DNA from: Acidobacteriaceae bacterium
GTDB taxonomy: Bacteria; Acidobacteriota; Terriglobia; Terriglobales; Acidobacteriaceae
DNA: 63,784 nucleotides
Reading direction: 5' to 3'
Assembly (NCBI GenBank): GCA_030037475.1
Contig: JASHRH010000167.1
Coordinates: 1 to 63,784 of the forward strand
In this document: piece after piece, positions 3,161 through 27,624 of the stretch
How the letters are laid out: every line of letters starts with the position of its first letter
How positions within the stretch are numbered: position 1 is the stretch's first letter
Position numbers and translations under genes: made by a program
Notes under the pieces: model-generated
What the model saw: only the letters and a program-made list of their open reading frames with translations
Told to the model about the DNA's origin: nothing
Databases searched by the model: none

Positions 3161-4868
3161 TCGCGGCCTCCGAGCACTTGGCTTCTTCGAGGGAATCCAA
3201 TATCTTTGTTACGTGATGATGCCATGTGTATTTTCGCAGTACATCGCCGCGGGCGGCCACCCCGATCGCGCGGCGCACGGCTGGCCGTTCGACCAAGAAC
3301 CTGAGGGACCGATTTAGATCGTCTACATTTCCGGGGCGAACAAGAATGGCGGACGCGAACGGACGGGAATCGAGAGAGTCGGACCAGATGCGAATTCCTG
3401 CGGCGAGAACCTCCCCGATCTGGTCGAGGTCAGACGCGATGATGCCCTTGCCCATGGCCATGTACTCGAAGAGCTTGGTTGGCGAGCCGAAGAACCGGCT
3501 GCCGTCGGCGTTGGCCACATGGGGAGAGACGAGAATATCCGAAGCCGCGAGATATTTTACAGTTTCGCTCTGTGGAACAAGGCCGGTAAAGAGGACCCAC
3601 TTCGCGTATTCCGGTAACCCGATGAGTCTTCGCACATCGGGCATTGTGGCGCCATCGCCGATCATTGCAAAGCGAACTTTGCCCCTTCCCAGCCAAGACG
3701 GGTGTCTCTCGATGAGGTTGCGAATGGCTTCGGCAAAGACAGGGGCGCCGTGCCATCGGCCAAAGGTGCCAACGAAGGAAACGAGGCACTCATCTGGAGC
3801 GATGCCGTGGCGTTCACGAATGACAGAAATCTCTCGTTTCGGCACGGCCTCGGGACTGAAGTGGGAGGGATCGACACAGTTTGGGTAGCAGACTACGCGC
3901 TTAGGGTCAACACCGCGTCTAATTACTTCTTCGGCTAGGGCCCGGGACACCACGACCACGCGATGGGCATGACGAAGGCAAGCGCCTTCGAGAGTAGTTG
4001 CTAATGCCGAGAAGCGCAGTGGCTTACCCCAATTTCGGCTAATCCACACCTCAGAGCCATTGTATTCGAGGACGAGAGGAATGCGCCATAACCTGGATAA
4101 AGCCACACCGGCAAAGTTGAACAGAGACATTCGCTGATAGATAAAGCGATAGCAAGCCCCATTGAGAGCTCGTAACTGGTTCCAAACATGCCAGTGAAAG
4201 CGTAGCAAGTTAAGTTCGATCGGATAGGCTTGGGTTCTGAGCCCTTTGATAGGGATCTGCCGCACGGCAGGACGGGTCATTGGCTGCGGACTGGCGCTGG
4301 CAAGATCGACCCCATATCCCAAATCTGAGAAGGCGTTTATGACCCCTGCAATGTGCCCAATGGAACCACCGACACGAATTCCGAACCAATAGTTAGTATT
4401 GACATATAGGATCTGACGTTTCGATTGTATATCGGCACATTCTCGCCGCTGGCGGTTCACCAACAATGCTCCGGCAAACTGACTCCAGGCCAGGGCCAAC
4501 AGGCCTGAGATCATCCCGACTCCGACACGCGGTATAGCAGAGAAGATTTCGGATTTTCGAACATCTCGCAACGAGCAATCCGCGCCAACCACCACGGTAC
4601 TCTCGACCGAAGAAAGCGCGACAAGTCCGAGAATAAGGGGATACATAGACTCGCTCTGTGGATCTTCGAGGGGAATGTAAAGGATCGCCTTTTTATGCAT
4701 CTTCCTCAAGAAGAAGACCATCTTTGCAAAGCTCATCCTGCGAAGCTCAGCAACTGAGATATAGACAACGTTGGTGCCTGCCACTCTCTCCACTGCCTTT
4801 CGGAAGCCGCCGGAAAGCGGATAGCAGCTCAAGACATAAGCTTCTGGATTCTGCACATTCATACCCAA
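3129..4868 (-). CDS. Glycosyltransferase family 4 (GT-B, Glycos_transf_1) with a ~190-aa N-terminal extension
   Basis: C-terminal half has ...FVGTFGRWHGAPVF... and ...PTKLFEYMAMGKGIIASD..., the E-x7-E region typical of GT4. I do not recognise the N-terminal ~190 aa. Its 3' end overlaps the downstream start by 32 nt. Confidence 0.8.
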   Translation of the reverse strand: MGMNVQNPEAYVLSCYPLSGGFRKAVERVAGTNVVYISVAELRRMSFAKMVFFLRKMHKKAILYIPLEDPQSESMYPLILGLVALSSVESTVVVGADCSLRDVRKSEIFSAIPRVGVGMISGLLALAWSQFAGALLVNRQRRECADIQSKRQILYVNTNYWFGIRVGGSIGHIAGVINAFSDLGYGVDLASASPQPMTRPAVRQIPIKGLRTQAYPIELNLLRFHWHVWNQLRALNGACYRFIYQRMSLFNFAGVALSRLWRIPLVLEYNGSEVWISRNWGKPLRFSALATTLEGACLRHAHRVVVVSRALAEEVIRRGVDPKRVVCYPNCVDPSHFSPEAVPKREISVIRERHGIAPDECLVSFVGTFGRWHGAPVFAEAIRNLIERHPSWLGRGKVRFAMIGDGATMPDVRRLIGLPEYAKWVLFTGLVPQSETVKYLAASDILVSPHVANADGSRFFGSPTKLFEYMAMGKGIIASDLDQIGEVLAAGIRIWSDSLDSRPFASAILVRPGNVDDLNRSLRFLVERPAVRRAIGVAARGDVLRKYTWHHHVTKILDSLEEAKCSEAANAMRERKTEL

Positions 4869-4910
4869 TTATACGGAGACCTAGTACACATTAGACTGTC
4901 ACGCTTACCT

Positions 4911-6992
4911 TCAGCCATTTGCAGAGACGATTGCGATGTTAAGATCAGTCAGCGAACCTTCACGCCTCCACACGAGTCTGCAAGATGGGAGGCATACGCC
5001 GTAGGATGGAGAAATGCGACAGGGCTCGATGGACAATTTCCACGATAAAGGCTCGATCCACTCCAGGAGAAAGCGCCGGTTGCGAGTCCGCAACTGCACG
5101 GATCCCGGTTCGATAATGTCTGCCCTAGCGCCCGGGTCGAGGTGGAGCGGGATCTCGACTTTGTGGCTGCCGGAGCCCTCGAAGGAATCGCGAATACGGA
5201 GCTTATGAGATCTGTGCTCAAGCTGAATCCTTCGGAGGGGCCGAACTTGACCGGGCAGTCTGAGATAACCCGAGTGTGAACCCTCGAACTCGTCTCCCTC
5301 CGCGCACGACTTCCACTTGCGGAGCTCGGGTTTGGCGTCGTAATGCAGGGACCAGAGAGCATCCCATGCGACGAATCGGTTTATCTCTTCGCCGTCGACA
5401 AGAGGGGTGTTATGCGCGGTGGTGGAGCGGAATCGGTTTCGCTCCTCAGCAGAGGCAGTATAGACGTATGCCCCGCAATCGGTGATCAGGTGCACTCCAT
5501 CCAGCGTCGCTTCGAAACTGAGGCAATCATTGTGCCCATGACCACCACGCCCGCCCAAACCGACGGGACCGCAGTCGATGAATATTCGATCGTCGCGGTT
5601 ACGCATAATGAAGAAGCCGCCACCGGGAAAATGCTCCGAGGTGATCTCTTCGCAGCCTGCCTGTGCGGAGAGCCAGTCACATGAGTCAGGCCCGAAAATC
5701 CAAAAGATCTCATCGAGCGGACCGGAGAATTTGCGGGCAAGATCATCGGAAGTCCAGTTGACTGCCCCTAGTCCGACGAGATAGCGATGGTCGTTGCACT
5801 GCTGACCTCCAAAAGGAAGAGTGCGTGCGTCATCCGCATCACCCCAGAGGGGGCAGGAACCGTCGGGAGCCGAATAGGCTGCACTGAAGTGTGCCATTGT
5901 CTCGACACGGACACGGTAGGAATTGTCCAAGGGCAACCCATGCAGTTGCCGATATATCGCCGGAAAGAGAAATAGTTCCTGAACCAAGCGGTGATAAGGA
6001 ATGGAAGCTTCGAAATCGACGCCGTCGCTGTAGACCTGACGGGGCAACTCACTACAGAGCGTCTTCCAGCCGTGGACGAGCCAACGATCCGGCTGCTCGC
6101 CTTGACCAAAAAACAGTCCGGCGAAAACTAATGCGGCAGCATCAGCGGTGTAGTGATTGCCAGCAATATCCGAAACTTCGATATGGCGTTCCGTGTACTC
6201 TGCGTGCAGATAGATGGACTGGAGGAGACGAAAGCGAAAATCGCGATTGTGCCAGGATTTGCTGCCAGCGAAGACATGAAAGAGCCATGTCAGAGTGAAA
6301 ATCCGCATGGCGACTTCCATGGTACAGGACCAATTGACGGTTCGGGCGTAAGGATTACCCTCCAGCCACTCGATAATGACATCGTGAACGGATTCTGCGT
6401 ATCGTTCGTCTTGAGTAAGCAGATATGCCTGCCCCACGGGAATGAGCCATTGCAATCGCGAGATCTCCCACGGTACCTTCACGTCGGTCGCCTGACTGAG
6501 ATTGCTGTATTCGATTGATTTGGCGTAAGCCCTAGGCCAGCGGTAACCGGTCTTAAGGTCACATTCCCAATCAATCGGCCGACCTAGCATTCTTGGTCCA
6601 GTACCCAGTAGGTCAATACGCCGCTCAAGGGCATGGCGTGCCCTCTTCATAATGCTTTCACGCGTGCCGGGGCAGCACCGGTCCACTTGGGAGGCGCATT
6701 TGGCGGAGAGGGTTGCGGGATAGGGTCGTCGTGCAAGCCGTTCCCAGAGGTCAACCAGATCTCGCGCGCGAAGATTCCGAATAAGTCGCTGTTCGGTGAG
6801 ACGTGTGGGCCTCGACTGGGACAGATGTTTGTCGATGGCCGCCGCTATCTCCTGGCGGAGGCGGATCAGAATGATGCGAGGGGGCTTCCTGAATGCGCGC
6901 CGAACCTTTGCAATGAGGGCCTTCAAGCGACCCCAACCTCTTTGCCCTGAATCCAATAAGAGTACCAAGCGGTGAGATTGAAAAGTACCCAA
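4911..6992 (-). CDS. Heparinase II/III-like family protein (no signal peptide)
   Basis: ...DLLGTGPRMLGRPIDWECDLKTGYRWP... matches the N-terminal heparinase II/III-type region. ...GGRGGHGHNDCLSFEATLDGVHLITDCGAYVYT... matches the Hepar_II_III C-terminal signature. ATG 6992 overlaps the upstream stop by 70 nt. An alternative TTG at 6926 forms a TTGA overlap with that stop. Confidence 0.75.
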   Translation of the reverse strand: MGTFQSHRLVLLLDSGQRGWGRLKALIAKVRRAFRKPPRIILIRLRQEIAAAIDKHLSQSRPTRLTEQRLIRNLRARDLVDLWERLARRPYPATLSAKCASQVDRCCPGTRESIMKRARHALERRIDLLGTGPRMLGRPIDWECDLKTGYRWPRAYAKSIEYSNLSQATDVKVPWEISRLQWLIPVGQAYLLTQDERYAESVHDVIIEWLEGNPYARTVNWSCTMEVAMRIFTLTWLFHVFAGSKSWHNRDFRFRLLQSIYLHAEYTERHIEVSDIAGNHYTADAAALVFAGLFFGQGEQPDRWLVHGWKTLCSELPRQVYSDGVDFEASIPYHRLVQELFLFPAIYRQLHGLPLDNSYRVRVETMAHFSAAYSAPDGSCPLWGDADDARTLPFGGQQCNDHRYLVGLGAVNWTSDDLARKFSGPLDEIFWIFGPDSCDWLSAQAGCEEITSEHFPGGGFFIMRNRDDRIFIDCGPVGLGGRGGHGHNDCLSFEATLDGVHLITDCGAYVYTASAEERNRFRSTTAHNTPLVDGEEINRFVAWDALWSLHYDAKPELRKWKSCAEGDEFEGSHSGYLRLPGQVRPLRRIQLEHRSHKLRIRDSFEGSGSHKVEIPLHLDPGARADIIEPGSVQLRTRNRRFLLEWIEPLSWKLSIEPCRISPSYGVCLPSCRLVWRREGSLTDLNIAIVSANG

Positions 6993-8944
6993 AGCTGGGC
7001 GGCATTTTCGCGGCGTCCGTTTCTATGGTCAGCAAATAGGCGGTTGATATGGTCGGTATGGAAGTAGCCCTGTTCAACGAGACCGGAAGTGAGGATGCTC
7101 TTTTGCACGAACTTGCCGAAGCCGCTCTTCAGCCAGTTCGACATCGGAGCACCGAAACCCCTCTTAACACGGTAGATGGTTTCGTTGGGAATGATACCCT
7201 CAGCGGCTTTCTTGAGCAGGTATTTGGCGACCCCGCCACGGGTTTTCCACCCCATGGGGATGTCCATCGAAAACTCTACCAAGCGGTGATCCAGGAAGGG
7301 GACGCGCGCCTCAAGAGACTCTGACATTGTGACCTTGTCGACGCGCATGAGCAGAAGTTCAGGCAGACGATGCTTGAACTCGTTGTACACCATCCTTGAG
7401 AGCACATCGTTGCCAGGATAATCGGCATCGAATTGCTCGAGGAAGCTACGGACTACGTTGTAACTATCCGGTTGAAAATAGGATGCGGGCAGCATCTGCT
7501 CATCACAGACCGTTTTCGGGGGAATGTAGGACTGGAGACATTCTGGACGCAAAAGGGGTCGTTTGAGGATGTCCCAGTAAACAACGGCTCCCGTCCAGAA
7601 CATCTCACGGTTGCGTGCAGCACGGTCTAGGATATCGGCATTAAAAGAGAAACCGGGGCGAATGGCTGCAATACTGCCGGCGGCCGCGGCGAGGCCTCGC
7701 TGAGCGAATTTAGGCAGATATCTACGAAATGGCCGCCAATAATCGCGGTATAGCCTGAGGTAATCCATATACTTCTGATAACCGCAGAACTGTTCGTCAG
7801 AACCCTCTCCAACCTGGACAACAGTGATGCCAGCATCGCGAGTTAGTTTTGAAACGAAGTAGAGGGGTACGCATACCCAATCGGCAATGGGCTCGTCCTG
7901 ATGGAAAATCAGGTCATCGAGGCAGCCGAACATCTCCCCTTCGCCAATTAGGACCTCATGGTGATTGGTGTTGAATCGTTTGGCCATGAGGCCGGCCTCG
8001 TCGAGTTCGTTAAGATGCACATGATCGCGGAACCCGACAGTAAAGGTTTCTACGGGCGAAGACGTGTATTCGCTCATCAGCGCAACGTTCAGCGAGGAAT
8101 CGATTCCTCCGGAAAGGAATACTCCAAACGGAACATCGGACATCATCCGGCACTTGACGGAAGCGCGCAGGCGTTTGCGGATCCCCTGAACGTAGAAGTC
8201 TTCGAGAGCGGCATCGGATAGCCCTCGGGTTTCAGATGCGGGAATCCCCTGTCCGGGTACGGCGTCCCAATATCGGCGCGCTTCAAGGTGGCCGTCGTTG
8301 TGGACCTGAAGACGATATCCTGCTGGAAGTTTATAGATCCCACGGAAGAGTGTGAGCGGCGCTGGAGCAGACATGAAAGTGAGATAGTGATACATAGCCA
8401 TGACGTCAATGTCTCTCTCGACGCCATGATGCTTGATGATAGCTTTTATTTCCGAACCGAAAAATAGGGCGTTGGCCTGGGGCGAGAAATAGAGCGGTTT
8501 GACGCCGATGCGATCGCGTGCCAGACTCAGGATTCGCCGCCGCGCGTCCCAGATCCCGAAGGCGAAATCGCCAGCAATACGCTCAAGTAATCCATCCAGT
8601 CCCCACTCTTCATACCCGTGCACCAGCACTTCGGTGTCTGAGTGGTCCGTTCGGAAAAGATGTCCGCGCCGAATCAGGTCCGGACGAAGCTCCGTGTGGT
8701 TGTAAATCTCTCCGTTGAAAGTAATCCAAACGCTACCATCTTCGTTTGACATGGGTTGGGAGGCGACCGCACTCAGGTCAATAATGGAAAGCCTGCGATG
8801 GGCGAGACCTGTCTTCCCATCAGGCGAAATCCAATTAGCGCCGCCATCGGGACCGCGGTGGACCATGGTGTCGCGCATGGCGGTCAGGTCTGTTTGGTCT
8901 ATCCGTCCTTCGCCGTGAACGAACACCCCCGTTATTCCGCACAT
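6923..8944 (-). CDS. Asparagine synthetase-like glutamine-dependent amidotransferase (long AsnB/WbpS-like form found in polysaccharide loci)
   Basis: Starts MCGITGVF, giving the Cys2 nucleophile of class-II GATases. PP-loop motif FLSGGIDSS is present. At 673 aa it is longer than housekeeping AsnB. Confidence 0.9.
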   Translation of the reverse strand: MCGITGVFVHGEGRIDQTDLTAMRDTMVHRGPDGGANWISPDGKTGLAHRRLSIIDLSAVASQPMSNEDGSVWITFNGEIYNHTELRPDLIRRGHLFRTDHSDTEVLVHGYEEWGLDGLLERIAGDFAFGIWDARRRILSLARDRIGVKPLYFSPQANALFFGSEIKAIIKHHGVERDIDVMAMYHYLTFMSAPAPLTLFRGIYKLPAGYRLQVHNDGHLEARRYWDAVPGQGIPASETRGLSDAALEDFYVQGIRKRLRASVKCRMMSDVPFGVFLSGGIDSSLNVALMSEYTSSPVETFTVGFRDHVHLNELDEAGLMAKRFNTNHHEVLIGEGEMFGCLDDLIFHQDEPIADWVCVPLYFVSKLTRDAGITVVQVGEGSDEQFCGYQKYMDYLRLYRDYWRPFRRYLPKFAQRGLAAAAGSIAAIRPGFSFNADILDRAARNREMFWTGAVVYWDILKRPLLRPECLQSYIPPKTVCDEQMLPASYFQPDSYNVVRSFLEQFDADYPGNDVLSRMVYNEFKHRLPELLLMRVDKVTMSESLEARVPFLDHRLVEFSMDIPMGWKTRGGVAKYLLKKAAEGIIPNETIYRVKRGFGAPMSNWLKSGFGKFVQKSILTSGLVEQGYFHTDHINRLFADHRNGRRENAAQLWVLFNLTAWYSYWIQGKEVGVA

Positions 8945-11100
8945 ATCGCCGCGCTCTCCTGATTATGGTTCTCGGTCGTCCAGATTTGCCGTTCCACATC
9001 AAAGCTTGTGCTGGTAGCCTGCAGCTGATCTTCAAGAGAAATGGGCCAGTCCGCACCCTCACAAAGTGTGTTCGCCACAGCCTCAAGTTCCTCAAGCTGT
9101 CCTTTTTGAACGAATTTGGACGCCCACCCGGAGCGTCGCGAACCGGCAATACTGATGCATTTGAAGTCGTCCATCGATATGACAAAGCCGCCGGCGAAGA
9201 TTTCCATCTGCTCCTTGGGAAATTGGCTGCTGCCCTGAGCCGTATACGTTAAGGTGCAAATAGACCCGTCTTCGTAGCCAATGACCGCAACGAAGTTGTC
9301 ATTGCGAGTCCATTGCTTAGAATGGGGTGCAATCGACCGTGCGTCAACGCTGCACACTCGCGATCCTGTAAGATAGTTAAAGAGGTCATAGATGTGGCAG
9401 GCTTCGCCGATATTGCGGCCGCCGCCCTCGAGTCCGTGTATCCAATGAGTGAGTGGAGTGTAGCCAGCGTTCATGCGATAATTAACAATCAAGGGCGTCG
9501 TTACATCAGCCAGCAAATCCTTTGCCTTGCGCATGGCGGGAGAAAAGCGGCGATTGAAACCCGTACACAGCAGGCGCCCCGAGTCGTGACCAGCAAAGAA
9601 TTCGGCAATAGCAGCTAGCTCCCCATCGTTCATGGCTAGCGGCTTTTCAACAAGGACATGTTTTCCAGCGTGCAAAGCTTCAAGCGCCAGACGGGCGTGA
9701 AGATTGTGTCGAGTGGCGATAAGAACCAAGTCAACATCGGGGGATTCCAGTACACGTTCGTACTCCGTAGTGCTGAAGGACGCGCCGAATTGTTCGGCGA
9801 CTGCTTTAGCCGTAGCTCCAGTGCGGCTGGCAACGCAGTAAAGCTGGTATTTCCTGCGCAAACGGACCATGTTTGGCAAGTGCATGCCTTGAGCGAAGCT
9901 GCCTGCGCCGATGAGGCCGACACGGATACGATCGGCCTTGATGGCAGCCGTACGGAAGATGACCCGCTGTAGTGCCTCTGGCCGGTCAGGATAGCTGAGG
10001 ATAGCGATGACAGGTCGTCTCTCGGCGCGTTGGAGGTCGGAGTAGGCTTGGGGGGCTTGGTCAATTTCGTAGGGCTTACCGATTAGGTTACGGAGGCGAA
10101 CCCGACCTTGGGCCACTAAGTATAGATAACTATCCATATTGCGATTCTCAGTCCATCGAACGTAAGGGAGAGGGTAATCGTGTCCGTCTTCCTCATAGAC
10201 AGGGTCGTAGCGTCCAGGACCGTACGAGCAGGAGATCAGGAAGTCGATCTCTTTAGTGTAGAAGTCAGAACGCCTGAGATGCAGACCAACATCGCCGACA
10301 AGCACGATACGCCCCTTCTTGCGGCACGCAATGGCTGCATCGCTTACAATCTGGTCCGTGGAGGAGGCGGCTGTAATAATCACGGCGTCGGCGCCGAAGC
10401 CGCTGGTAGCGTGCCTGACCACCTCGCAGTAGTTGTCCGTCGCCGCGTTGAGCCCATTTGCCAAGCCGTTCTGAAGGGCTAAATCGATTCGATGTTGGTC
10501 CGTATCGACCCCAATGACTCTACAGCCGTTCGCGGTCAGTAACTGAGCCACGATTTGGCCAAGGACGCCAAGGCCCACGACCACGATGGTTTCGCCCAAC
10601 GTCGGCTGTGCACGGCGAACTCCCTGCATAGCGATGGAACCCAGCGTGACCGTAGATGCCTCGTCCAGCGCCAGACAGTCCGGGACCTTTGCCGCCAAGT
10701 TTACCGGCACCGCGATTATCTCAGCATGACAGGCTATCCCCGCGCCAGCGCAGGCAACCCGGTCGCCGACTGAGAATCCTTCAACGGTTTCTCCAACGGC
10801 AATCACCTCCCCGGCTGCGGAATAGCCGCTTGCATTGCCCGCTGCCAGCTTGCCCTGAACGCGATTCAGGGTGCGCCGAAAGCCCTGATCCCGAATCATC
10901 CCCAGCATGCGCCGGGCCTGCTCCGGCTGCTTAAGCACGCGCCGGTACAATGACATCCCGGAATTTGTAACCGAGGAAAGCTCGGTGCCCGTGCTGATGC
11001 AAGAGTAGCGGACCCTGACAAGAATGCCGCTCGTCCCGGCCAGAGGGGCCGGGACTTCCTGCACCTGGGCAGTTCCGGACTTAAGCAGAACTTGCTTCAT
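8932..11100 (-). CDS. Bi-domain oxidoreductase: N-terminal zinc-type alcohol dehydrogenase (MDR) fused to C-terminal Gfo/Idh/MocA oxidoreductase
   Basis: The N-terminal half has an MDR-like fold with Rossmann motif VVGLGVLGQ. The C-terminal half begins RVGLIGAGSFAQGMHLPN... and continues ...LVLIATRHNLHA...GKHVLVEKPLA, which is the Gfo/Idh/MocA signature. Its stop overlaps the downstream AsnB-like start by 13 nt. Confidence 0.8.
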   Translation of the reverse strand: MKQVLLKSGTAQVQEVPAPLAGTSGILVRVRYSCISTGTELSSVTNSGMSLYRRVLKQPEQARRMLGMIRDQGFRRTLNRVQGKLAAGNASGYSAAGEVIAVGETVEGFSVGDRVACAGAGIACHAEIIAVPVNLAAKVPDCLALDEASTVTLGSIAMQGVRRAQPTLGETIVVVGLGVLGQIVAQLLTANGCRVIGVDTDQHRIDLALQNGLANGLNAATDNYCEVVRHATSGFGADAVIITAASSTDQIVSDAAIACRKKGRIVLVGDVGLHLRRSDFYTKEIDFLISCSYGPGRYDPVYEEDGHDYPLPYVRWTENRNMDSYLYLVAQGRVRLRNLIGKPYEIDQAPQAYSDLQRAERRPVIAILSYPDRPEALQRVIFRTAAIKADRIRVGLIGAGSFAQGMHLPNMVRLRRKYQLYCVASRTGATAKAVAEQFGASFSTTEYERVLESPDVDLVLIATRHNLHARLALEALHAGKHVLVEKPLAMNDGELAAIAEFFAGHDSGRLLCTGFNRRFSPAMRKAKDLLADVTTPLIVNYRMNAGYTPLTHWIHGLEGGGRNIGEACHIYDLFNYLTGSRVCSVDARSIAPHSKQWTRNDNFVAVIGYEDGSICTLTYTAQGSSQFPKEQMEIFAGGFVISMDDFKCISIAGSRRSGWASKFVQKGQLEELEAVANTLCEGADWPISLEDQLQATSTSFDVERQIWTTENHNQESAAICAE

Positions 11101-14567: not shown

Positions 14568-15836
14568 TTATCGTTGCGTGATCAAACTGCATGCGCGCAA
14601 GTTGTCGTCTTCCTGTTGATCTTGACTTGCAGAGCTCAGAGGAACCGTAGCGGCCCGGGCAGCAGTCTCACAAAGCGCCTGTGCCGCATAGTTGATTTGT
14701 TCGACTGCAAGTGTTGGATGCACCTGCAGCATGATCGCTGTTTCGCCAAGCTCCCGTGCCACTGAGAGCCGCGTGGCGGGCCGCCATTGTTTCGGGAACG
14801 CCTGTTCCAGATAGATCTCACCGCAGCTCCCCGTGAAACACGGTACACCGCGGGCATTTACCTCCGCTACTATGCGATCGCGGCTCCAACCGGTACAGAG
14901 TTCCTCCGGTCTTACGAAGACATAGTATTTATAGCAAGAGTGACCGATATCCGGCGGAGGAATGGTAACACGCAACCCCGGTACCGTAGCCAGTGCAGTG
15001 TTGAGAATCCCCGCGTGCTTACGTCTTCTTTCAACCCACCTCGGTAACTTGCGTAGCTGGATGCGACCGATTGCCGCCTGTATCTCAGTCATACGCCAGT
15101 TGGTGCCGAACGACTCATGCAGCCAGCGAAAACCAGGCGCATGGTCTCTACGGTAAACTGCATCATAGCTCTTGCCGTGATCTTTCAGTCCCCATGCCCG
15201 CTCATACAGATTTTCGGAGTTGAGCGTGAGTATGCCACCTTCGCCTCCCGTCGTCATGATCTTATCTTGGCAAAATGAAAATGCCGCCATGTCGCCGAGC
15301 GAGCCCACCGGCCGACCTTTGTACGTCGCGCCATGCGACTGCGCACAATCCTCGATTACGAACACATTGCGAGAACGGCCCAGCTCGAGAATTGAATCCA
15401 TATCGCATGGCCATCCCGCCAAGTGCACCGCGACAATCGCCTTGGTGCGCGGCGTCATCACGCGCGCGATACTCTCGGCTGTGATGTTCTGGCTCTCCCG
15501 GTCGATGTCTGCCATGACGGGCCTTGCACCAACCATGACAGCGCAACTTGCCGAGGCAACAAATGTGCGAGGAGTTGTGATTACTTCGTCGCCTGGTCCC
15601 ACGCCCAAGGTCCGCAGAGCGAGTTCCAGCGCCACGGTTCCGTTTGCCACAGCCACCGCATACTTGCAGCCGGCCGCGCGAGCAAACTCTTTTTCGAATT
15701 CCCTGCCTTCTTCGCCAGTCCAGTAATTAACCTTGCCCGATTTCAGGACTCGGGTCGCGGCTTCGATTTCATCGGGGGCAAAATATGGCCAAGGCGCGTC
15801 AGCCACACCAGGCTGAGCGGGCTTTTGTGCGTTCAT
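14568..15836 (-). CDS. DegT/DnrJ/EryC1/StrS-family PLP-dependent sugar aminotransferase
   Basis: ...YFAPDEIEAATRVLKSGKVNYWTGEEGREFEKEFA... is present. ...AAFSFCQDKIMTTGGEGG... is the PLP-lysine region. ATG start. Confidence 0.9.
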   Translation of the reverse strand: MNAQKPAQPGVADAPWPYFAPDEIEAATRVLKSGKVNYWTGEEGREFEKEFARAAGCKYAVAVANGTVALELALRTLGVGPGDEVITTPRTFVASASCAVMVGARPVMADIDRESQNITAESIARVMTPRTKAIVAVHLAGWPCDMDSILELGRSRNVFVIEDCAQSHGATYKGRPVGSLGDMAAFSFCQDKIMTTGGEGGILTLNSENLYERAWGLKDHGKSYDAVYRRDHAPGFRWLHESFGTNWRMTEIQAAIGRIQLRKLPRWVERRRKHAGILNTALATVPGLRVTIPPPDIGHSCYKYYVFVRPEELCTGWSRDRIVAEVNARGVPCFTGSCGEIYLEQAFPKQWRPATRLSVARELGETAIMLQVHPTLAVEQINYAAQALCETAARAATVPLSSASQDQQEDDNLRACSLITQR

Positions 15837-15880: not shown

Positions 15881-16987
15881 TCACTCTTTCTTGGCTGCTT
15901 CCGTCGGGATGGCACCCATGCACTCTAACCACGAGCGATGGAAGTGAATAATACGAATTTCCTCATCGCTGAGCATACCGACACTGTTTGTCTGCCCGAC
16001 AGCGCGCTGCACCGATTCGCATACGACCTGATCCTCAATCAGTACCTTACGGTTGAAGTCGCAGGCAGCCTCATGCAAAATGCCCATCATCATGGGCTTT
16101 ATTTTGGCTCCTGGATCCGGTTCACGATGAAACAGATGGCTTACTAGACGAGTACGATCCAAAGCCAGAGGATCGAGACGCTGCACGCTGTAAACGATGC
16201 CATGCGATGTTGACATGAGAAATGCTGGAAAGATATGGAGGTGATAGTAGCCCTTAGTGTGAACCGGACGCGCATCGAACGAGGCCAGGAAGTCATGGTT
16301 TTTGCGATCCTGTCTATCGAATGGACTGTCGGCGTGAGAATGCATACCGTGGAGTCCATAATCGCCGAAAGTCAAGCCCAGCTTGGCGAATGTCTCCGCG
16401 TGAACGAATCCAATGTGGTAACCCTCAAGGGTGTTCTCGACTACGATCTTCCAGTTACAGGCCAATTCCATCTCAAACCGGCCGATTTCCCGACCCATAT
16501 TGTCGGTCATTGTCTCGAGAATGGAAAAGTACTCACCCATCCACTCGCGCAAAGACGGGCCCGACTCTTTCACACGTATGAAGACTAGACGGCCACATTG
16601 CTCCAACGCGACAGACTGCAAAGCAAGACCACAGATAACTTCCGGTGAAAGATTCTCGAATTTCGGGCGCGCCGGAATCCCTGTCGGAACCCCCGCGCTA
16701 TCATAGGTCCAGCCATGATAGGGACAGCGAAATGGCCCATTGCCTCTAGGCTCGCAGTGAATTTGACTGAACCGGTGTGAGCAGACGTTGACAAACGCGC
16801 GCAACTGGCCCTTGAAATTCCGGATCAATACTGATTTACGCCCTGCTGGCACCACGACGTAGTCATTATCCGCCGCCAGATCGTCGAGAACACACGCGAA
16901 TCTCCAACTTCTCTCAAACAAGAGTTCCTCCTCGCTGGCGAATAAGCCCGAATCGCAGTAGCCTTTTGCCGAAATCAGCCCTTTCAT
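15881..16987 (-). CDS. Rieske [2Fe-2S] non-heme-iron oxygenase, alpha-subunit type (no beta subunit or reductase nearby)
   Basis: Rieske motif CSHRFSQIHCEPRGNGPFRCPYHGW (C-x-H-x16-C-x2-H). Mononuclear-iron motif NTLEGYHIGFVH (H-x4-H). Start set at MKGLISAKGY because its ATG forms an ATGA overlap with the upstream KAS III stop (16984-16987). The longest ORF form starts at 17014. Confidence 0.85.
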   Translation of the reverse strand: MKGLISAKGYCDSGLFASEEELLFERSWRFACVLDDLAADNDYVVVPAGRKSVLIRNFKGQLRAFVNVCSHRFSQIHCEPRGNGPFRCPYHGWTYDSAGVPTGIPARPKFENLSPEVICGLALQSVALEQCGRLVFIRVKESGPSLREWMGEYFSILETMTDNMGREIGRFEMELACNWKIVVENTLEGYHIGFVHAETFAKLGLTFGDYGLHGMHSHADSPFDRQDRKNHDFLASFDARPVHTKGYYHLHIFPAFLMSTSHGIVYSVQRLDPLALDRTRLVSHLFHREPDPGAKIKPMMMGILHEAACDFNRKVLIEDQVVCESVQRAVGQTNSVGMLSDEEIRIIHFHRSWLECMGAIPTEAAKKE

Positions 16988-18009
16988 TGATATTTCCTGA
17001 ACACGTTGCTCCACTCAAGCATGCATGCGCCCCACGAGTAGCCAACGCCAAAGCCGACCAGCATAGCCAGATCTCCGTCACGCATGCGGTCAGCGGCGGC
17101 CTGAAGCGTGATAGGAATCGTATTGCTCACGGTGTTCCCAACCTCCTCGACGAACAACGGTGCCCTACCTTCTGGTATTTTCAGAGCATTGCACAGCTTT
17201 CCATTCATGAATGCATTAGCCTGATGAAAAATAAACCAATTAATGCAGTCCATTGTGGTTTCGGATTTGGCAATGAGAGCCCTGACCACCTCCGGCACTC
17301 TCTTAAGGGTAAACGCAAACACCTCCTGACCATTCATCCAAAGATTCTCTTCCGAGCGCATGCATCCCTGATCGTCGACTCTCTCTTCCCGAGTTAGCGC
17401 GCTTCGGGGCTTTCGCGCTGCGCCAGATGGCACAATCAAATTGTTAAAACCACTGCCGTCAGTACCCAGAACAAAGTCCCCTATTATTGAACCAGGCCCC
17501 TCAGCACCAATCAGCGTAGCGCTTCCGGCGTCCCCAAAAAGTACTCGAACACTACGATCACGAGGATGGATGAATTTGCTGTATGTTTCTCCGGTCAACA
17601 GCAGAACGTTCTTAGCCATTCCGGCCCTGATCATCGACTTGGCGATAAACAAGCCATAGACATAACCAGAGCAGCCCTGGTTAAAGTCAAGCGCCGCACA
17701 GGATGTTGGAAGACCCAGGCGATCCTGTAGTACGCAGGCAGTGGCCGGAAGAAAGTAGTCCGGGCTCTGAGTGCAAAATAGCAAAACGTCGATACGGCGA
17801 GGGAGATCGCTGCCCGCTAACAGCTTCTCAGCAGCAGCGAAGGCCAAATCCGACGCCGTTTCATCTTCTTTCGCGATTCGTCGGTTCCGAATTCCAATCT
17901 TCCGGGTTAAGCGATCCAGGTCCCAGTCTAAGTTTTCACGAGCGAGTTGTTCGTTCGTAAGTCGCCCTTGCGGTAGATGAACGGCTATTCGCTTCAAGTA
18001 GACGTTCAT
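16984..18009 (-). CDS. 3-oxoacyl-ACP synthase III (FabH-like, KAS III) paralog 1
   Basis: The Cys-His-Asn triad contexts are intact: NQGCSGYVYG, FIFHQAN and VGNTVSNTIP. ATG start 6 nt after the ACP stop. Confidence 0.85.
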   Translation of the reverse strand: MNVYLKRIAVHLPQGRLTNEQLARENLDWDLDRLTRKIGIRNRRIAKEDETASDLAFAAAEKLLAGSDLPRRIDVLLFCTQSPDYFLPATACVLQDRLGLPTSCAALDFNQGCSGYVYGLFIAKSMIRAGMAKNVLLLTGETYSKFIHPRDRSVRVLFGDAGSATLIGAEGPGSIIGDFVLGTDGSGFNNLIVPSGAARKPRSALTREERVDDQGCMRSEENLWMNGQEVFAFTLKRVPEVVRALIAKSETTMDCINWFIFHQANAFMNGKLCNALKIPEGRAPLFVEEVGNTVSNTIPITLQAAADRMRDGDLAMLVGFGVGYSWGACMLEWSNVFRKYQ

Positions 18010-18015
18010 TCCAGT

Positions 18016-18255
18016 TTAGGAAATAACCATCGCCCTAGAACGGATGTGTTCGATTAGCTCTTCCACCGTCACAAAGGAACGAATTTTTCGAGGTTCCAAT
18101 TGAAGGGCGTACCTCTCATCGAGAAGAGACATGATGGTAAGCCAAACGAGCGAGTTCCATTCGGGAATGCTTGCGATGGTCGTCTCCGGAACAATGTCCG
18201 CGGGATTGACCTCAAGAGCCTCGGCAATAAGCTCTATAAGTTCGTCGGTTGTCAT
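18016..18255 (-). CDS. Acyl carrier protein (phosphopantetheine-binding)
   Basis: 79 aa and acidic. The putative attachment serine lies in ...IPEWNSLVWLTIMSLL..., an N-S-L variant of the DSL motif. The start is preceded by TTTAGGAGATCGT-ATG, an AGGAG Shine-Dalgarno sequence that overlaps the upstream TAG stop. Confidence 0.75.
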   Translation of the reverse strand: MTTDELIELIAEALEVNPADIVPETTIASIPEWNSLVWLTIMSLLDERYALQLEPRKIRSFVTVEELIEHIRSRAMVIS

Positions 18256-18263
18256 ACGATCTC

Positions 18264-18923
18264 CTAAAAGTAGAAACTCTTTCCTGGAACTCCAATGATG
18301 GTGCTTCCAGCTTTTACATTGCGAAGCGCGACACTACCGGCACCGATAATCGCAAAGGCGCCGACTCTCACCCCCGGACATACAACTGCGTGACTGCCCA
18401 TGTAAACCCCGCGTTCGAGGTAGGTGTTTCCAGTGATATCGCAGAATGCATTTAACGTACAGCCGTCCTCAAGTATCGAATCGTGTCCAATTCCGACGAA
18501 AGAGTTGAGCGCATTGTGATTGCCGATCTTTGAGTTCGCGCTGAGTCCTGTGGAACGCAAAAGGATGTTTCCTTTTCCCATGGTACTGGTCTCGTATTGC
18601 CAAGATGTTGGATCAATAACATTCGTAAACTGGCCTCCTCGGCTACATATTAGGTCACACAATTTTAGCTTTATTTTGGGTGTACCTACAGCACAGATAA
18701 ATCGATCCTGATCTTGCGGCTGGTAATCCTGAATGCTACTCAAAACCGGCTCGCCATACCCCTTAATGCTCAACTCACGTCGGGCCTGATCGGTATTGTC
18801 ATCTAGAAATCCACCGACGTCCCATAATGAAACGGAATGCCGCTCTATGAGACGCACCGTTCCCAGCACTTCTCTGCCGAATCCTCCGGCCCCAATAATG
18901 AGCAACCGCGGTCGGCTCAACAA
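18264..18923 (-). CDS. NeuD/PglD/PglB-family sugar N-acyltransferase (N-terminal Rossmann-like + left-handed beta-helix)
   Basis: ...RLLIIGAGGFGREVL... is the NeuD-type N-terminal domain. Hexapeptide repeats follow, with ...FVGIGHDSILEDGCTLNAF... carrying a His equivalent to the catalytic His of PglD. TTG start overlaps the upstream SDR stop. Confidence 0.8.
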   Translation of the reverse strand: MLSRPRLLIIGAGGFGREVLGTVRLIERHSVSLWDVGGFLDDNTDQARRELSIKGYGEPVLSSIQDYQPQDQDRFICAVGTPKIKLKLCDLICSRGGQFTNVIDPTSWQYETSTMGKGNILLRSTGLSANSKIGNHNALNSFVGIGHDSILEDGCTLNAFCDITGNTYLERGVYMGSHAVVCPGVRVGAFAIIGAGSVALRNVKAGSTIIGVPGKSFYF

Positions 18924-19675
18924 AGCAGGCCGCCGTCAATCACCAGGTTTGCCCCCGTGATGGCGCGCGCTGCGTTACTCAATAGAAATGCAGCGGCGGT
19001 TGCAATATCCAAGGCGGACGGAAGACCTAGAAAATGCTGACTTATGAGCGTATCTACTGTCTCTCCCAGGTTTCGTCCCCGCTCTGTCATGTTCGTACCC
19101 GATATGTAGGTCGGCGAAAGAGCATTCACCCGGATCCGACGCGCCGCCAGCTCCTTTGTAGCACTCAGGATCATGGCGTTCAGCGCCCCCTTAGAAGCAG
19201 AGTAGACAACGAGTCCCGGATTTCCGAAGATCGATGCGATGGATGACAGCATCACAACTGATGCCCATTCGGAAGAGACAAATTTGCTGCTCATGCCCCG
19301 CATTAGTGCAAACGCGGCATAGAGGTTCGGAACCATGATCTCGTCGATATGGCGCCGGGATATGACCCGCAACGGAGCAGTACTCCCTACGCCAGCGGAG
19401 TGCACTAAGCCATCCAAGGTCGCTCCCGCGCCTGAGCACACTGCTTTCATCCACGCGGGAATCGCATCGATATCAGAGAGATCGAAGGGCGCGATGATAT
19501 GGCTGCTAGATGAGCCCATCATCTGCCGAGTTTCATCCAAAGCTTCCTTCCGGCGGCCGCTGAGAATTACACGCGCTCCCAACTGGTCGAAGAGGATGGA
19601 TGCAGCCCGACCGATACCTGAAGAGGCGCCGGTAACGAGGACGAGCTTGCCTGTAAGGTCCAAGGGGTTATCCAC
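18917..19675 (-). CDS. Short-chain dehydrogenase/reductase, FabG-like 3-oxoacyl reductase
   Basis: Cofactor motif VTGASSGIGRA and catalytic YSASKGAL (Y-x3-K). GTG start overlaps the upstream KAS III stop by 8 nt. Confidence 0.85.
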   Translation of the reverse strand: MDNPLDLTGKLVLVTGASSGIGRAASILFDQLGARVILSGRRKEALDETRQMMGSSSSHIIAPFDLSDIDAIPAWMKAVCSGAGATLDGLVHSAGVGSTAPLRVISRRHIDEIMVPNLYAAFALMRGMSSKFVSSEWASVVMLSSIASIFGNPGLVVYSASKGALNAMILSATKELAARRIRVNALSPTYISGTNMTERGRNLGETVDTLISQHFLGLPSALDIATAAAFLLSNAARAITGANLVIDGGLLC

Positions 19676-20759
19676 TCGCAGGCGCTCCGATCTGGATGAT
19701 TTTGGCTACCTGTAGAGATCGCAGAGTACCTGCCATCGCACCCCAAGAATAGCCAACTCCAAATCCGGCAAGTACAGTCTTTGTCGCAGCCTCTGACTTC
19801 AGACGGGCGGCTACTTCGTCGGCGATCAGAAGGCCGATGGTCGAAACTGATGTGTTTCCGAACTTTGCGATATTTCCCGGCACGCGGTCCAAGGGTAACT
19901 TTAACCGTTTGGCGATTGCTTTGACGATGAAATCATTAGCTTGGTGAAGCAGGTAAAGGTCTACTTCCTCTCTATTCCAAGCGTGCAGTTTCAGGACACC
20001 ATCGATTAACGGTGGAACACGCTGCAGCGCAAAATTGAAGATGGCCAGTCCATCCATGTGAACCTGCATTCGTGTGCGTACATTGCCCTCAGGATCAACG
20101 ATTTTCTCACAGGCTTTCACAGACGCCGGTTCACGAAAGGCGCCCGCCGGCACGATCAGATTGTCGGCTCCGGATCCGTCCGTGCCCAGCAAAAAGGACC
20201 ATTCCTCCGCACTCTCGTCGAACTCAACTGCAGTCGCGGTTCCAGCGTCGCCGAATAGCGCGGCGACACCTCGATCTTCCCACGATGACATCACGCTCGG
20301 CGTATCGCCGGCCAGCAGCAGAAAGCGCCTGCAGGCCCCGGAGGAGATGAAATTCGCGGCGAGGAAAAGACCATAGATATACCCGGAACACCCCATGCCG
20401 ACGTCGAACGCCAGCACATTGTTAGGCAAGCAAAGCTTTTCCTGTGCGATGCAGGCGGTCGCAGGACAAAAGTGATCAGGATTCTGCGTTACCATCACCA
20501 CACCGTCGATTGAAGAGCGCTCCCACACGAGGTCAGTCAGTAGCGCATCGGCTGCTGCTATGGAGAGGTCGCCCGCCGTTTGTCCGGGTTGTACTCGATG
20601 GAGGGTGCGCACGCCTGCACTGGCAGAAAGCTTCTTTAGATCTTCGGCGCTGAAAGGTGAAGGAACATCGCTGATATCGAGCGGAAGGCCGGGAACGGCC
20701 CCAACGACCCCGCGAATAGCGACACCTCTGTATTTGCCGGCTGCCAAAGACTCCTCCAA
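19668..20759 (-). CDS. 3-oxoacyl-ACP synthase III (FabH-like, KAS III) paralog 2
   Basis: Triad contexts are DVGMGCSGYIYG, LLHQAN and FGNTSVSTIG. The apparent TTG start lies 4 nt after the AcpS stop. The exact start is uncertain by a few codons. Confidence 0.8.
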   Translation of the reverse strand: MEESLAAGKYRGVAIRGVVGAVPGLPLDISDVPSPFSAEDLKKLSASAGVRTLHRVQPGQTAGDLSIAAADALLTDLVWERSSIDGVVMVTQNPDHFCPATACIAQEKLCLPNNVLAFDVGMGCSGYIYGLFLAANFISSGACRRFLLLAGDTPSVMSSWEDRGVAALFGDAGTATAVEFDESAEEWSFLLGTDGSGADNLIVPAGAFREPASVKACEKIVDPEGNVRTRMQVHMDGLAIFNFALQRVPPLIDGVLKLHAWNREEVDLYLLHQANDFIVKAIAKRLKLPLDRVPGNIAKFGNTSVSTIGLLIADEVAARLKSEAATKTVLAGFGVGYSWGAMAGTLRSLQVAKIIQIGAPASG

Positions 20760-20763
20760 AAAG

Positions 20764-21144
20764 CTACTGCATCAGCACGACAGCCATCGCAAGCTCGTTC
20801 TCGTGAGTTATCGATGCCGAGAGGCAGGTACAACCCTGCTCCCTAGCAAACTCTTCCATGGTACCCAGTAATCGAACTATGGGTTGACCTTCTCTATTGG
20901 GAAGGCACTCAATTTCAGACAACCGGAACCCATTGTCAATTCCCCTGCCCATTGCCTTCAGCAGGGCTTCCTTAACGGCGAAGCGGCCGGCGAGAAACTC
21001 ACTTCTACGTCGATGAGCCACAAGCTGGTCAGCATGGACCAACTCTGCAGGGGAAAAAATCTTTTCCGCAAATGTCACGGAGCGACTCATCTTTCTCTCC
21101 AGACGTCCCACTTCGACGACATCGATACCAATACGCAAATGCAT
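20764..21144 (-). CDS. acpS: Holo-ACP synthase (AcpS-type 4'-phosphopantetheinyl transferase)
   Basis: 126 aa. MHLRIGIDVVEVGRLERKM..., ...FLAGRFAVKEALLKAMG... and ...SITHENELAMAVVL together form the classic AcpS pattern. Confidence 0.85.
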   Translation of the reverse strand: MHLRIGIDVVEVGRLERKMSRSVTFAEKIFSPAELVHADQLVAHRRRSEFLAGRFAVKEALLKAMGRGIDNGFRLSEIECLPNREGQPIVRLLGTMEEFAREQGCTCLSASITHENELAMAVVLMQ

Positions 21145-21202: not shown

Positions 21203-21832
21203 TTAATCACGGACTGCCCTCTCGGGGTTGAATTCAGGCATACTGACATGATTCCTGTTTGAAATCTCTCGAGCGGCCAAGGCCTTCGGAATGGTGAGCA
21301 GCAGAATCTTCACATCGAGCCAGAAGCTCCAATTGTCAACGTACCAGACGTCCAGTGCGAACTTCTCTTCCCACTCAATAGCGTTCCGGCCGTTAACCTG
21401 GGCCCAGCCGGTCAGGCCCGGCTTCACCAAGAGTCGCCGCGCCTGCGCTGGCGAGTAGCGCGCAACGTATTCTGCGAGTAATGGGCGGGGACCGACAAGA
21501 CTCATTTCTCCGCGCAGCACATTGATGAATTGCGGCAACTCGTCCAGGCTAGTTGCCCGGAGCAACCTCCCAACTCCATGCAGGCGGTCTGCATCGGGCA
21601 GCAGCGCGCCAGTCGCGTTATGCTCATCGGTCATGGTCTTGAATTTCAGAATTGTGAATAATCGCCCGTTCATACCGGGGCGCTCCTGGTAGAAGAATAC
21701 CGGCGTACCCAGCCAGATCCTAACCGTCAAAAACGTGAGCACAAACACCGGCGAAACAATCACTAGCGCGACCGCACTAACGCAGAGGTCTAATACTCGT
21801 TTCGAGGCATTAGCTAGTCTCTTCACCTGCAA
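21203..21832 (-). CDS. Small monotopic phosphoglycosyl transferase (bacterial sugar transferase, PglC/WbaP-C-terminal type), initiating enzyme
   Basis: 209 aa with one N-terminal hydrophobic helix. ...SLDELPQFINVLRGEMSLVGPRP... and ...KPGLTGWAQVNGRN... are the Bac_transf signatures. Confidence 0.9.
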   Translation of the reverse strand: MQVKRLANASKRVLDLCVSAVALVIVSPVFVLTFLTVRIWLGTPVFFYQERPGMNGRLFTILKFKTMTDEHNATGALLPDADRLHGVGRLLRATSLDELPQFINVLRGEMSLVGPRPLLAEYVARYSPAQARRLLVKPGLTGWAQVNGRNAIEWEEKFALDVWYVDNWSFWLDVKILLLTIPKALAAREISNRNHVSMPEFNPERAVRD

Positions 21833-26592: not shown

Positions 26593-26615
26593 TGTGAGGT
26601 TTCAACAGGTTGTCC
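26593..26615 (+). repeat. IS481-family left terminal inverted repeat
   Basis: TGTGAGGTTTCAACAGGTTGTCC. It pairs with 27597-27619. Confidence 0.8.
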
Positions 26616-26672
26616 ATCGGATCAAGAACTGGGAAGCTGGGTTTGCGAAGACTCGGTTTCACAGGAGAGCCG

Positions 26673-27624
26673 ATGGACTACCACCAGAATGCCCGACTGA
26701 CGATCCACAGTCGAGAGCAGTTAGCCAGCAAAGTTGTGGAGCGGGGATGGACACTGAAGCAGGCTGCGGCCTGCTTCAGTGTGAGCGCGAAGACGGCCGC
26801 CAAATGGGTATGTCGCTATCGTGAGCTGGGGCCGGCGGGGCTGAGGGATCGCAGTTCGCGTCCCCGACGTTGGCCGCGGCAGACTTGTTCTTCCTTAGTG
26901 GAAAGGGTTTTGGCTCTTCGCCGTGAGCGGTGGACGGGCCTCCGTATCGCGCAGCAGACCGGCCTGAGCCGCGCCATCGTCAGCCGCATCCTGCGGCGCG
27001 CGAAGCTGAGCCGGATGCGCGATCTGGAACCCCCATCCCCGGTTCGCCGCTACGAGCATGCGGCTCCCGGTGACCTGCTGCACCTCGATATCAAGCGGCT
27101 GGTGCGCATCGCCCGACCCAGCCATCGCGTCACCGGCGACCGCCGGGATACGGTACGCGGCATCGGAGTCGAGTACGTTCATGTGGCCATCAACGATTAC
27201 TCGCGCATCGCCTTCTCGGCCATCCGCCCGGATGAGAAGCGGGCTTCGGTGCTGCACTTCCTGGCCGATGCGCTGGCTTACTATGCGCGCTTCGGCATCC
27301 GCTTTCGCGCCGTGCTCACCGATAACGGCCCGGCCTACCGCTCGCGCGCCTTTGCTCAGGCCTGCCGCGCTCTGGACCTGAAGCACCCGCTTCACCCGGC
27401 CCTACACCCCGCGCACCAACGGCAAGGCCGAGCGATTTATCCAGACTGCTCTGCGCGAATGGGCCTGCGCACGCACGTACCAGAACTCCAACCAACGCAG
27501 CCGGGAGCTTCGCCCCTGGCTGCACCAGTACAACTGGCATCGGCCTCATGGTAGTCTCGGTGCGTCGCCGCCCATCACCCGATCACTCCTCGATCGGAAC
27601 AACCTGTTGAGACTCCACAGCTAG
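26673..27624 (+). pseudogene. IS481-family DDE transposase, interrupted by a 1-nt frameshift near 27387
   Basis: The first frame gives MDYHQNARLTIHSREQLA...RSSRPRRWPRQT...HLDIKRL...VHVAINDYSRIAF...LTDNGPAYRSRAFAQACRALDLKH. The frame then slips at CAC-C-CGC. The +1 frame continues RFTRPYTPRTNGKAERFIQTALREWACARTYQNSNQRSRELRPWLHQYNWHRPHGSLGASPPITRSLLDRNNLLRLHS and stops at TAG 27622-27624. The catalytic E of the DDE triad (NGKAERF) lies downstream of the shift. Confidence 0.8.
27597..27619 (-). repeat. IS481-family right terminal inverted repeat
   Basis: The reverse complement reads TGTGGAGTCTCAACAGGTTGTTC. Confidence 0.8.

Follow-up and report, generated by a model that had tools for sequence, protein, structure and literature searches.

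The stretch of DNA analysed here (the window, 63,784 nt; contig JASHRH010000167.1, positions 1 to 63,784, assembly GCA_030037475.1 of an Acidobacteriaceae bacterium) carries a polysaccharide locus in which the gene of a Rieske non-heme-iron oxygenase is embedded among genes for the construction of a short acyl chain. Relatives of this oxygenase form a clade that accompanies such genes in several phyla, and the enzyme is probably a tailoring step of the acyl-chain line. The features of the oxygenase and of its immediate surroundings are as follows.

15881-16987, minus strand: Rieske non-heme-iron oxygenase of the alpha-only type, 368 amino acids (P0001), identified from its open reading frame (ORF) and translation, Pfam, AlphaFold2 and Foldseek.
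16658-16906, minus strand: Rieske [2Fe-2S] domain of the oxygenase, residues 28-110 (PF00355, E 8e-14), with the ligand codons at 16715-16783.
15914-16489, minus strand: Ring_hydroxyl_A mononuclear-iron catalytic domain of the oxygenase, residues 167-358 (PF00848, E 1e-23), with E188, H191, H196 and D319.
14568-15836, minus strand: DegT/PseC-type sugar aminotransferase, 44 nt downstream of the oxygenase (PF01041, E 9e-99).
16984-18009, minus strand: first ketoacyl synthase III of the locus (KASIII-1), its stop overlapping the oxygenase start (Pfam, NCBIfam; Cys-His-Asn triad kept).
18016-18255, minus strand: dedicated acyl carrier protein (ACP), 79 amino acids (PF00550), with a W-x-S phosphopantetheine site at S35 that aligns with other locus ACPs.
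18264-18923, minus strand: PglD/NeuD-type hexapeptide N-acyltransferase (PglD_N and Hexapep; TIGR03570, E 1e-45).
18917-19675, minus strand: FabG-like ketoreductase (adh_short_C2/KR).
19668-20759, minus strand: second ketoacyl synthase III (KASIII-2; Pfam; catalytic Cys-His-Asn triad kept).
20764-21144, minus strand: AcpS-type phosphopantetheinyl transferase (PF01648, TIGR00516).
21203-21832, minus strand: small PglC-type phosphoglycosyl transferase (PF02397, E 3e-64).

These genes belong to one long minus-strand array. Its 5' part encodes a TetR regulator, a UDP-sugar dehydrogenase, a membrane-anchored short-chain dehydrogenase/reductase (SDR), the PglC-type transferase, AcpS and KASIII-2; the middle continues with the ketoreductase, the N-acyltransferase, the ACP, KASIII-1, the oxygenase and DegT; and the 3' part holds Wzc, Wza, a two-domain oxidoreductase, an AsnB-like enzyme, a heparinase II/III-like protein, a GT4 glycosyltransferase, Wzy and Wzx. 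An ACP-dependent sugar N-acyl cassette of the wfpC-G type is complete and tightly packed at 16984-21144, with the DegT and phosphoglycosyl transferase genes flanking it. The acyl module contains a single ketoreductase and neither a dehydratase nor an enoyl reductase, and Pfam annotation revealed no methyltransferase in the cassette. In transcription order the oxygenase sits between KASIII-1 and DegT, and its ATG at 16987 overlaps the TGA of the KASIII-1 ORF as ATGA. This overlap had been noticed in the original prediction, and the aligned N-termini of homologues match this start rather than an upstream GTG at 17014. The same prediction had regarded the oxygenase as the terminal gene. It is indeed the last gene of the acyl module, but not of the array: the DegT gene, also on the minus strand, begins 44 nt beyond the oxygenase, the interval between them shows no terminator-like site, and wzc, wza and further genes come after DegT.

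The G+C content is 53-56% in the block at 1-27 kb, which contains the polysaccharide locus, versus 61-66% elsewhere in the window (27001-63784). Because this shift falls at a gene of an IS481-family transposase (26610-27554), it suggests that the locus is a horizontally acquired glycan island. An orthologue of the oxygenase was not found in the 24 same-genus or the 16 same-order genomes searched, which, together with the G+C contrast, indicates that the oxygenase is probably an accessory gene of an acquired island. Two further features of the array were observed. The dedicated ACP has E-W-N-S at its phosphopantetheine site, where relatives have E-W-D-S, the Trp at Ser-2 being invariant in this ACP group. 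At 4911-11100 (minus strand), a cytoplasmic-looking heparinase II/III-like protein, a long AsnB-like amidotransferase and a fused zinc-dependent alcohol dehydrogenase/GFO-IDH-MocA oxidoreductase are encoded in the same operon.

The active site of the oxygenase is intact. The complete Rieske centre and H-x4-H iron site that had been read from the sequence were both confirmed by an alignment with 37 homologues: the [2Fe-2S] ligands C69-S-H71 and C88-P-Y-H91 are invariant (37/37), as are all three residues of the mononuclear iron site, H191-x4-H196 and D319, while the acidic residue that bridges to the cluster of the neighbouring subunit, E188, is kept in 36 of the 37. An AlphaFold2 model built on the alignment reached a mean predicted local distance difference test (pLDDT) score of 93.5. 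It has the two-domain fold of Rieske oxygenase alpha subunits (Foldseek probability 1.00; template modelling (TM) scores of 0.72-0.80 to many alpha subunits).

The relatives of the oxygenase are distant and found in several phyla. Among 5.8 billion clusters the nearest proteins reached only 45% identity and came from Gemmatimonadota, Bacteroidota, Pseudomonadota and unassigned metagenomes. An exhaustive HMMER scan of 1.84 billion 50%-identity representatives returned 251 proteins at E <= 1e-30, at least 150 of them at E <= 1e-38, and the well-supported clade that includes the oxygenase comprises roughly 150-250 clusters at 50% identity. A feature search of the ESM Atlas gave only generic "aromatic ring-hydroxylating" and YeaW-like clusters.

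Linkage to acyl-chain genes was assessed at 80 loci from species-representative genomes by tblastn with the window proteins, scoring KASIII and ketoreductase genes within 10 kb. All 17 loci with an oxygenase of at least 160 bits and enough flanking sequence contained both; they represent 14 distinct places, with L001/L002 and L004/L005/L015 as duplicates. The sole locus above this score without demonstrated linkage is a 5-kb contig. Of about 70 weaker relatives, only two have a nearby KASIII gene, L024 and L070, the former inside and the latter outside the clade on the tree. Maximum-likelihood analysis united the linked proteins in one clade of 20 rows with a support of 96 in the SH-like approximate likelihood ratio test (SH-aLRT), comprising 19 linked proteins and the one on the 5-kb contig. 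The metagenomic homologues examined (7/7, 32-46% identity) likewise lie inside cassettes with KASIII, a small ACP, an SDR ketoreductase and an acyltransferase. Every clade member examined is found beside KASIII and ketoreductase genes in a glycan locus, namely at 16 multi-phylum loci, in 15 further Flavobacterium species and at two loci with fused genes. Phylogenetic placement and a check of orthologue linkage had both been proposed in the original prediction; the single supported clade and the linkage of 17/17 high-scoring genome loci, 7/7 metagenomic homologues and 16/16 Flavobacterium genes are the outcome.

Some of the metagenomic cassettes contain two or three paralogous oxygenases. At L013:3005-6405, three tandem paralogous oxygenases of the clade stand between one KASIII and one ketoreductase gene, beside NeuB in a nonulosonic-acid locus. 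This arrangement suggests multiple oxidations of a C4 chain.

Within Flavobacterium, the clade gene occurs in 16 of 301 species genomes, each time within ~35 nt of a KASIII gene, and about 17 other species carry a glycan-type KASIII without the oxygenase. In the oxygenase-less examples retrieved, the gene order is collinear with that of oxygenase-bearing cassettes, and the number of KASIII genes is one or two. About half of the Flavobacterium cassettes sampled carry the oxygenase, inserted next to a KASIII gene. Since collinear cassettes exist without it, and the F. psychrophilum version of these has been assigned to a 3,5-dihydroxyhexanoyl group, the oxygenase is an optional add-on step to the acyl cassette.

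Unbiased clustering of the neighbouring ORFs at 15 loci showed that only KASIII, ketoreductase and oxygenase are common to nearly all, while DegT is present in 8 and hexapeptide transferases in at least 7. The enzymes expected to supply the acceptor sugar differ between loci. A bacillosamine-type set (PglC, PglD-like transferase, DegT) is found in the window and in Flavobacterium sp. CF136 (L004); Acetobacter lambici has a pseudaminic-type set of PseC, PseB, a CMP-sugar synthetase and NeuB, with a GNAT transferase adjoining the oxygenase; and the set of Paraburkholderia monticola combines two oxygenases, two hexapeptide transferases and an FkbM methyltransferase. As the acceptor route and the transferase family vary in this way, the oxygenase appears to travel with the chain-building enzymes and not with a particular sugar.

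A KAS tree placed KASIII-1 in a distinct subclade of six proteins with a support of 100. All six are encoded in oxygenase loci (the window, L001:3415-4470, L004:7701-8705, L024:6213-7280, L141 and L142), and none of four oxygenase-less Flavobacterium cassettes has a member. A constant companionship of this subtype with the oxygenase was dropped as a rule, as many oxygenase loci are without it. Two loci, L003:4254-6626 and L012:12925-15328, share a conserved trio by the cassette, consisting of an ORF of ~100 amino acids, an SDR and an AMP-binding (acyl-adenylate-forming) enzyme, which may be a starter-unit loading system.

The 150 best representatives were also inspected for unusual length, and three proved to be longer. 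In P0124 (578 amino acids) and P0152 (590 amino acids) a PglD-like hexapeptide N-acyltransferase is fused to the C-terminus of the oxygenase, and in P0130 (473 amino acids) the oxygenase is followed by only the start of such a transferase. No forms longer than 644 amino acids were found. Both full fusions are encoded in KASIII cassettes from separate samples (L143:710-2446 and L144:8001-9773), and they share 44% identity along both halves and the linker. The architecture is thus conserved and not an assembly error. The transferase half of P0152 is homologous to the PglD-like transferase of the window, and separate genes in this order, the oxygenase first and the transferase next, are frequent as well (L003, L012, L014 and L021). 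PglD-type transferases and alpha-only Rieske oxygenases are both trimers, which would make such a fusion geometrically plausible. The L144 locus has a second composite gene at 3896-5749, a single gene of 617 amino acids that joins a Bac_transf phosphoglycosyl transferase to a DegT aminotransferase.

These arrangements were weighed against an action of the oxygenase on the sugar itself, either as a PrnD-like N-oxygenation of the 4-amino group or as a ring hydroxylation of the nucleotide sugar. Rieske N-oxygenases exist, the DegT gene lies directly downstream of the oxygenase, and the fusion is compatible with such a role because the fused transferase also binds a nucleotide sugar. KASIII and ketoreductase genes are, however, present in essentially every locus, whereas DegT is found in 8 of 15 and the sugar pathway changes from bacillosamine-type to pseudaminic-type. 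As the oxygenase tracks the chain-building genes and not the sugar pathway, N-oxygenation of the PrnD type fits poorly; moreover, oxidation of the amine would block its acylation, although a transferase gene is a usual part of such loci. No match labelled PrnD appeared among the NCBIfam, PDB and clade-profile results, which came from libraries with no PrnD entry. We therefore regard a sugar-directed reaction as unlikely.

An alpha-only nature of the oxygenase, as originally proposed, is supported by the search for partner genes. In line with the original statement that the window has no beta subunit, ferredoxin or reductase, no Ring_hydroxyl_B, Fer2, NAD_binding_1 or second Rieske-domain gene was detected on the oxygenase contig in a search that did not extend to 4Fe-4S ferredoxins, flavodoxins and Pyr_redox-type reductases. 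The assembly was searched as a whole (453 contigs, 88.8% complete), and no Ring_hydroxyl_B (PF00866) beta subunit scored above the cut-off anywhere in it; Fer2 and NAD_binding_1 domains are encoded on other contigs only. The complete gene sets of two clade-carrying isolates, Flavobacterium sp. CF136 and Acetobacter lambici (G041 and G042), contain no PF00866 protein at all. At the related loci, neither the neighbour clustering nor the Pfam context revealed a ferredoxin, reductase or beta-subunit family. The assembly encodes two more Rieske-domain proteins, at C353:10993-11952 (27% identical to the oxygenase) and at C9:5975-6226.

The missing beta subunits also bear on the view that the protein is an ordinary alpha subunit of an aromatic ring-hydroxylating dioxygenase, present in the locus by chance or as a decayed remnant. 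Databases do label its relatives "aromatic ring-hydroxylating", and its best single-sequence PDB match is the alpha subunit of biphenyl dioxygenase (E 1.5e-24). This match spans residues 9-225 only, and no NCBIfam equivalog model gives the protein more than 84 bits, where the cut-offs are 600 or higher; for benzoate, anthranilate and HcaE the models yield 59-84 bits (cut-offs 670-830). The strict synteny with KASIII and the conserved fusions speak against a chance insertion, and the intact catalytic residues against decay, so that this explanation is effectively refuted. The assignment to the acyl module rather than to aromatic catabolism, which the original prediction had argued from the start-stop overlap, is in turn borne out by the linkage of the clade to KASIII and ketoreductase and by the fusions to PglD-like transferases.

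Methyltransferases of the FkbM type (Methyltransf_21) recur beside the oxygenase (L013, L014, L020, L021, L023 and L144), and they may methylate a hydroxyl group introduced by it. Their presence in 5 of the 15 clustered loci and beside the L144 fusion could also be read in favour of an oxidative demethylase, or of another non-hydroxylating Rieske reaction on a glycan substituent such as O- or N-demethylation, desaturation or C-C ring closure; Stc2, an N-demethylase, and CntA, which cleaves a C-N bond, are among the nearest structural relatives of the alpha-only kind. A locus that attached a methyl group only to take it off again would make little sense, though, and the window cassette is without a methyltransferase. 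The cation-pi residue of the quaternary-amine enzymes is absent as well (see below). Such a reaction is, in our view, improbable, slightly more so than one on the sugar.

Taken together, linkage and fusion show that the oxygenase is functionally coupled to the acyl module. Because the clade always stands beside genes for short acyl chains, the oxygenase most likely adds oxygen to such a chain. The intact active site, the distinct clade, its strict linkage to KASIII and ketoreductase and its fusion to the transferase are observed, whereas what the enzyme acts on, by which reaction and at which position is inferred. We propose with fair but not full confidence that the oxygenase tailors the product of the acyl-chain line that is private to the locus, and that it oxidises a hydroxyacyl chain built on the ACP when this chain is due for transfer or has just been transferred. 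The two KASIII enzymes, the AcpS-loaded ACP and the ketoreductase would produce a short 3-hydroxy- or 3,5-dihydroxy-acyl chain, as expected from the retained KASIII triads, the single ketoreductase and the lack of a dehydratase and an enoyl reductase. The oxygenase, presumably a monooxygenase of the homotrimer type, would take electrons from a housekeeping ferredoxin and reductase, and these would pass from the [2Fe-2S] cluster via Glu188 to the iron of the neighbouring subunit (H191, H196, D319). It would then place an extra oxygen function, most likely a hydroxyl, into the acyl chain; hydroxylation is probably the reaction. The PglD-like transferase would finally place the chain on the 4-amino group made by DegT. 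For the oxidation itself we slightly favour a chain still on the ACP over one just moved to the nucleotide amino sugar.

Several points weigh against this proposal. Linkage and fusion would look the same for an ACP-bound substrate and for one already transferred; they do not tell which carbon is attacked, and they fit desaturation, demethylation or ring formation as well as hydroxylation. None of the oxygenase loci examined encodes a redox partner. The closest solved structures share 19-22% identity with the oxygenase, and neither fold nor sequence hints at a substrate. A complex prediction for the oxygenase and the ACP of the locus scored 0.03 (mark 0.32), which has no bearing on binding either way.

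The dominant antigenic determinants of O-antigens, capsules and flagellin glycans include short hydroxyacyl groups carried by amino sugars, and the assignment of genes even to the simple forms (3-hydroxybutanoyl, 3,5-dihydroxyhexanoyl) is only beginning. If the oxygenase acts as proposed, a dedicated clade would explain the origin of more oxidised acyl epitopes. With its occurrence in several phyla and in about half of the sampled Flavobacterium cassettes, it would also provide a new marker gene for serotype prediction. The Rieske family, which is of interest in biocatalysis, would gain a biosynthetic, possibly carrier-protein-directed, aliphatic C-H hydroxylase, for which the conserved oxygenase-transferase fusion is a natural construct suited to testing. 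We tentatively go one step further, at somewhat less than even confidence, and suggest that the clade may represent the first known case of Rieske oxygenases at work in the assembly of bacterial surface glycans: complexed with or fused to a trimeric N-acyltransferase, these enzymes would hydroxylate a short polyketide-like chain bound to a carrier protein and thereby yield polyhydroxy-acyl amino-sugar epitopes, such as trihydroxyhexanoyl or dihydroxybutanoyl, that have so far been assigned to no genes.

Among known Rieske systems, the alpha3beta3 dioxygenases for terephthalate, biphenyl and naphthalene have the same cofactor ligands as the oxygenase, and terephthalate dioxygenase (TPADO, 7q05/7vju) gave the best Foldseek matches (TM 0.76-0.80). 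These enzymes need a beta subunit and are encoded in catabolic operons with reductase and ferredoxin genes, whereas no beta gene is present here. The oxygenase is also 40-90 residues shorter than their alpha subunits, and its bridging residue is Glu where theirs is Asp.

A closer likeness exists to the alpha-only enzymes CntA, GbcA and Stc2 (group V), to which the original prediction had compared the protein. The size of ~370 amino acids is similar, CntA aligns with the clade profile over nearly its full length (E 4e-43) with matching iron ligands, E188 corresponds to the bridging E205 of CntA, and a C-terminal F..ED...E.VQ.G motif with the iron-binding Asp is common to the clade and CntA. This part of the comparison stands. 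The group V structures match the oxygenase model at TM 0.72-0.77 with only 19-21% identity, and with the GbcA model NF058607 the protein obtains 84 bits (cut-off 670), over residues 10-203 only. A hallmark of group V is the aromatic residue at CntA Y203, which makes a cation-pi contact with the quaternary ammonium group (PMC7948474). The corresponding position is Thr186 in the oxygenase and T, G, A, I or S in the 37 homologues, with an aromatic residue in none of them. No CntB/GbcB-type reductase is adjacent, in the window or at any related locus examined, and the context is glycan biosynthesis in contrast to the amine catabolism of group V. A quaternary-amine enzyme of the CntA/GbcA type was rejected, as the cation-pi aromatic residue is absent. 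Given the non-aromatic Thr186 and scores that approach no NCBIfam equivalog cut-off, the sequence places the oxygenase as an alpha-only Rieske enzyme that falls into neither the quaternary-amine group nor the alpha3beta3 aromatic dioxygenases.

The literature searched describes no Rieske oxygenase in O-antigen, pseudaminic acid, flagellin-glycan or KASIII/ACP polysaccharide loci, nor one of this class for ACP-tethered hydroxylation. CylP, a cylindrocyclophane hydroxylase mentioned in a single review, was the only Rieske item in it and was set aside as unrelated. For the option of a substrate already transferred to the sugar, CMP-N-acetylneuraminate hydroxylase (CMAH) offers a functional analogy only, with no homology implied beyond the Rieske domain: this animal enzyme uses a Rieske cluster and iron to hydroxylate a nucleotide-activated sugar on the N-acyl group, and the catalytic domain of CMAH is other than Ring_hydroxyl_A.

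The best counterpart of the cassette as a whole is the set of R1-group genes wfpC-wfpG of the F. psychrophilum O-polysaccharide (Cisar et al. 2019, PMC6519341). In the model proposed for these genes, chemistry like that of a type II fatty acid synthase on a private ACP yields 3,5-dihydroxyhexanoyl, which a PglD homologue is predicted to move to UDP-Qui2NAc4N (PMC6519341). Two KASIII enzymes, a dedicated ACP, a ketoreductase and a PglD-like N-acyltransferase, beside genes of the PglC/PglE type, are shared by both systems. The wfpC-G cassette has no oxygenase, and neither "Rieske" nor "oxygenase" is mentioned in its description (PMC6519341), whereas the cassette of the window has its own AcpS and the Rieske oxygenase added to the common set.

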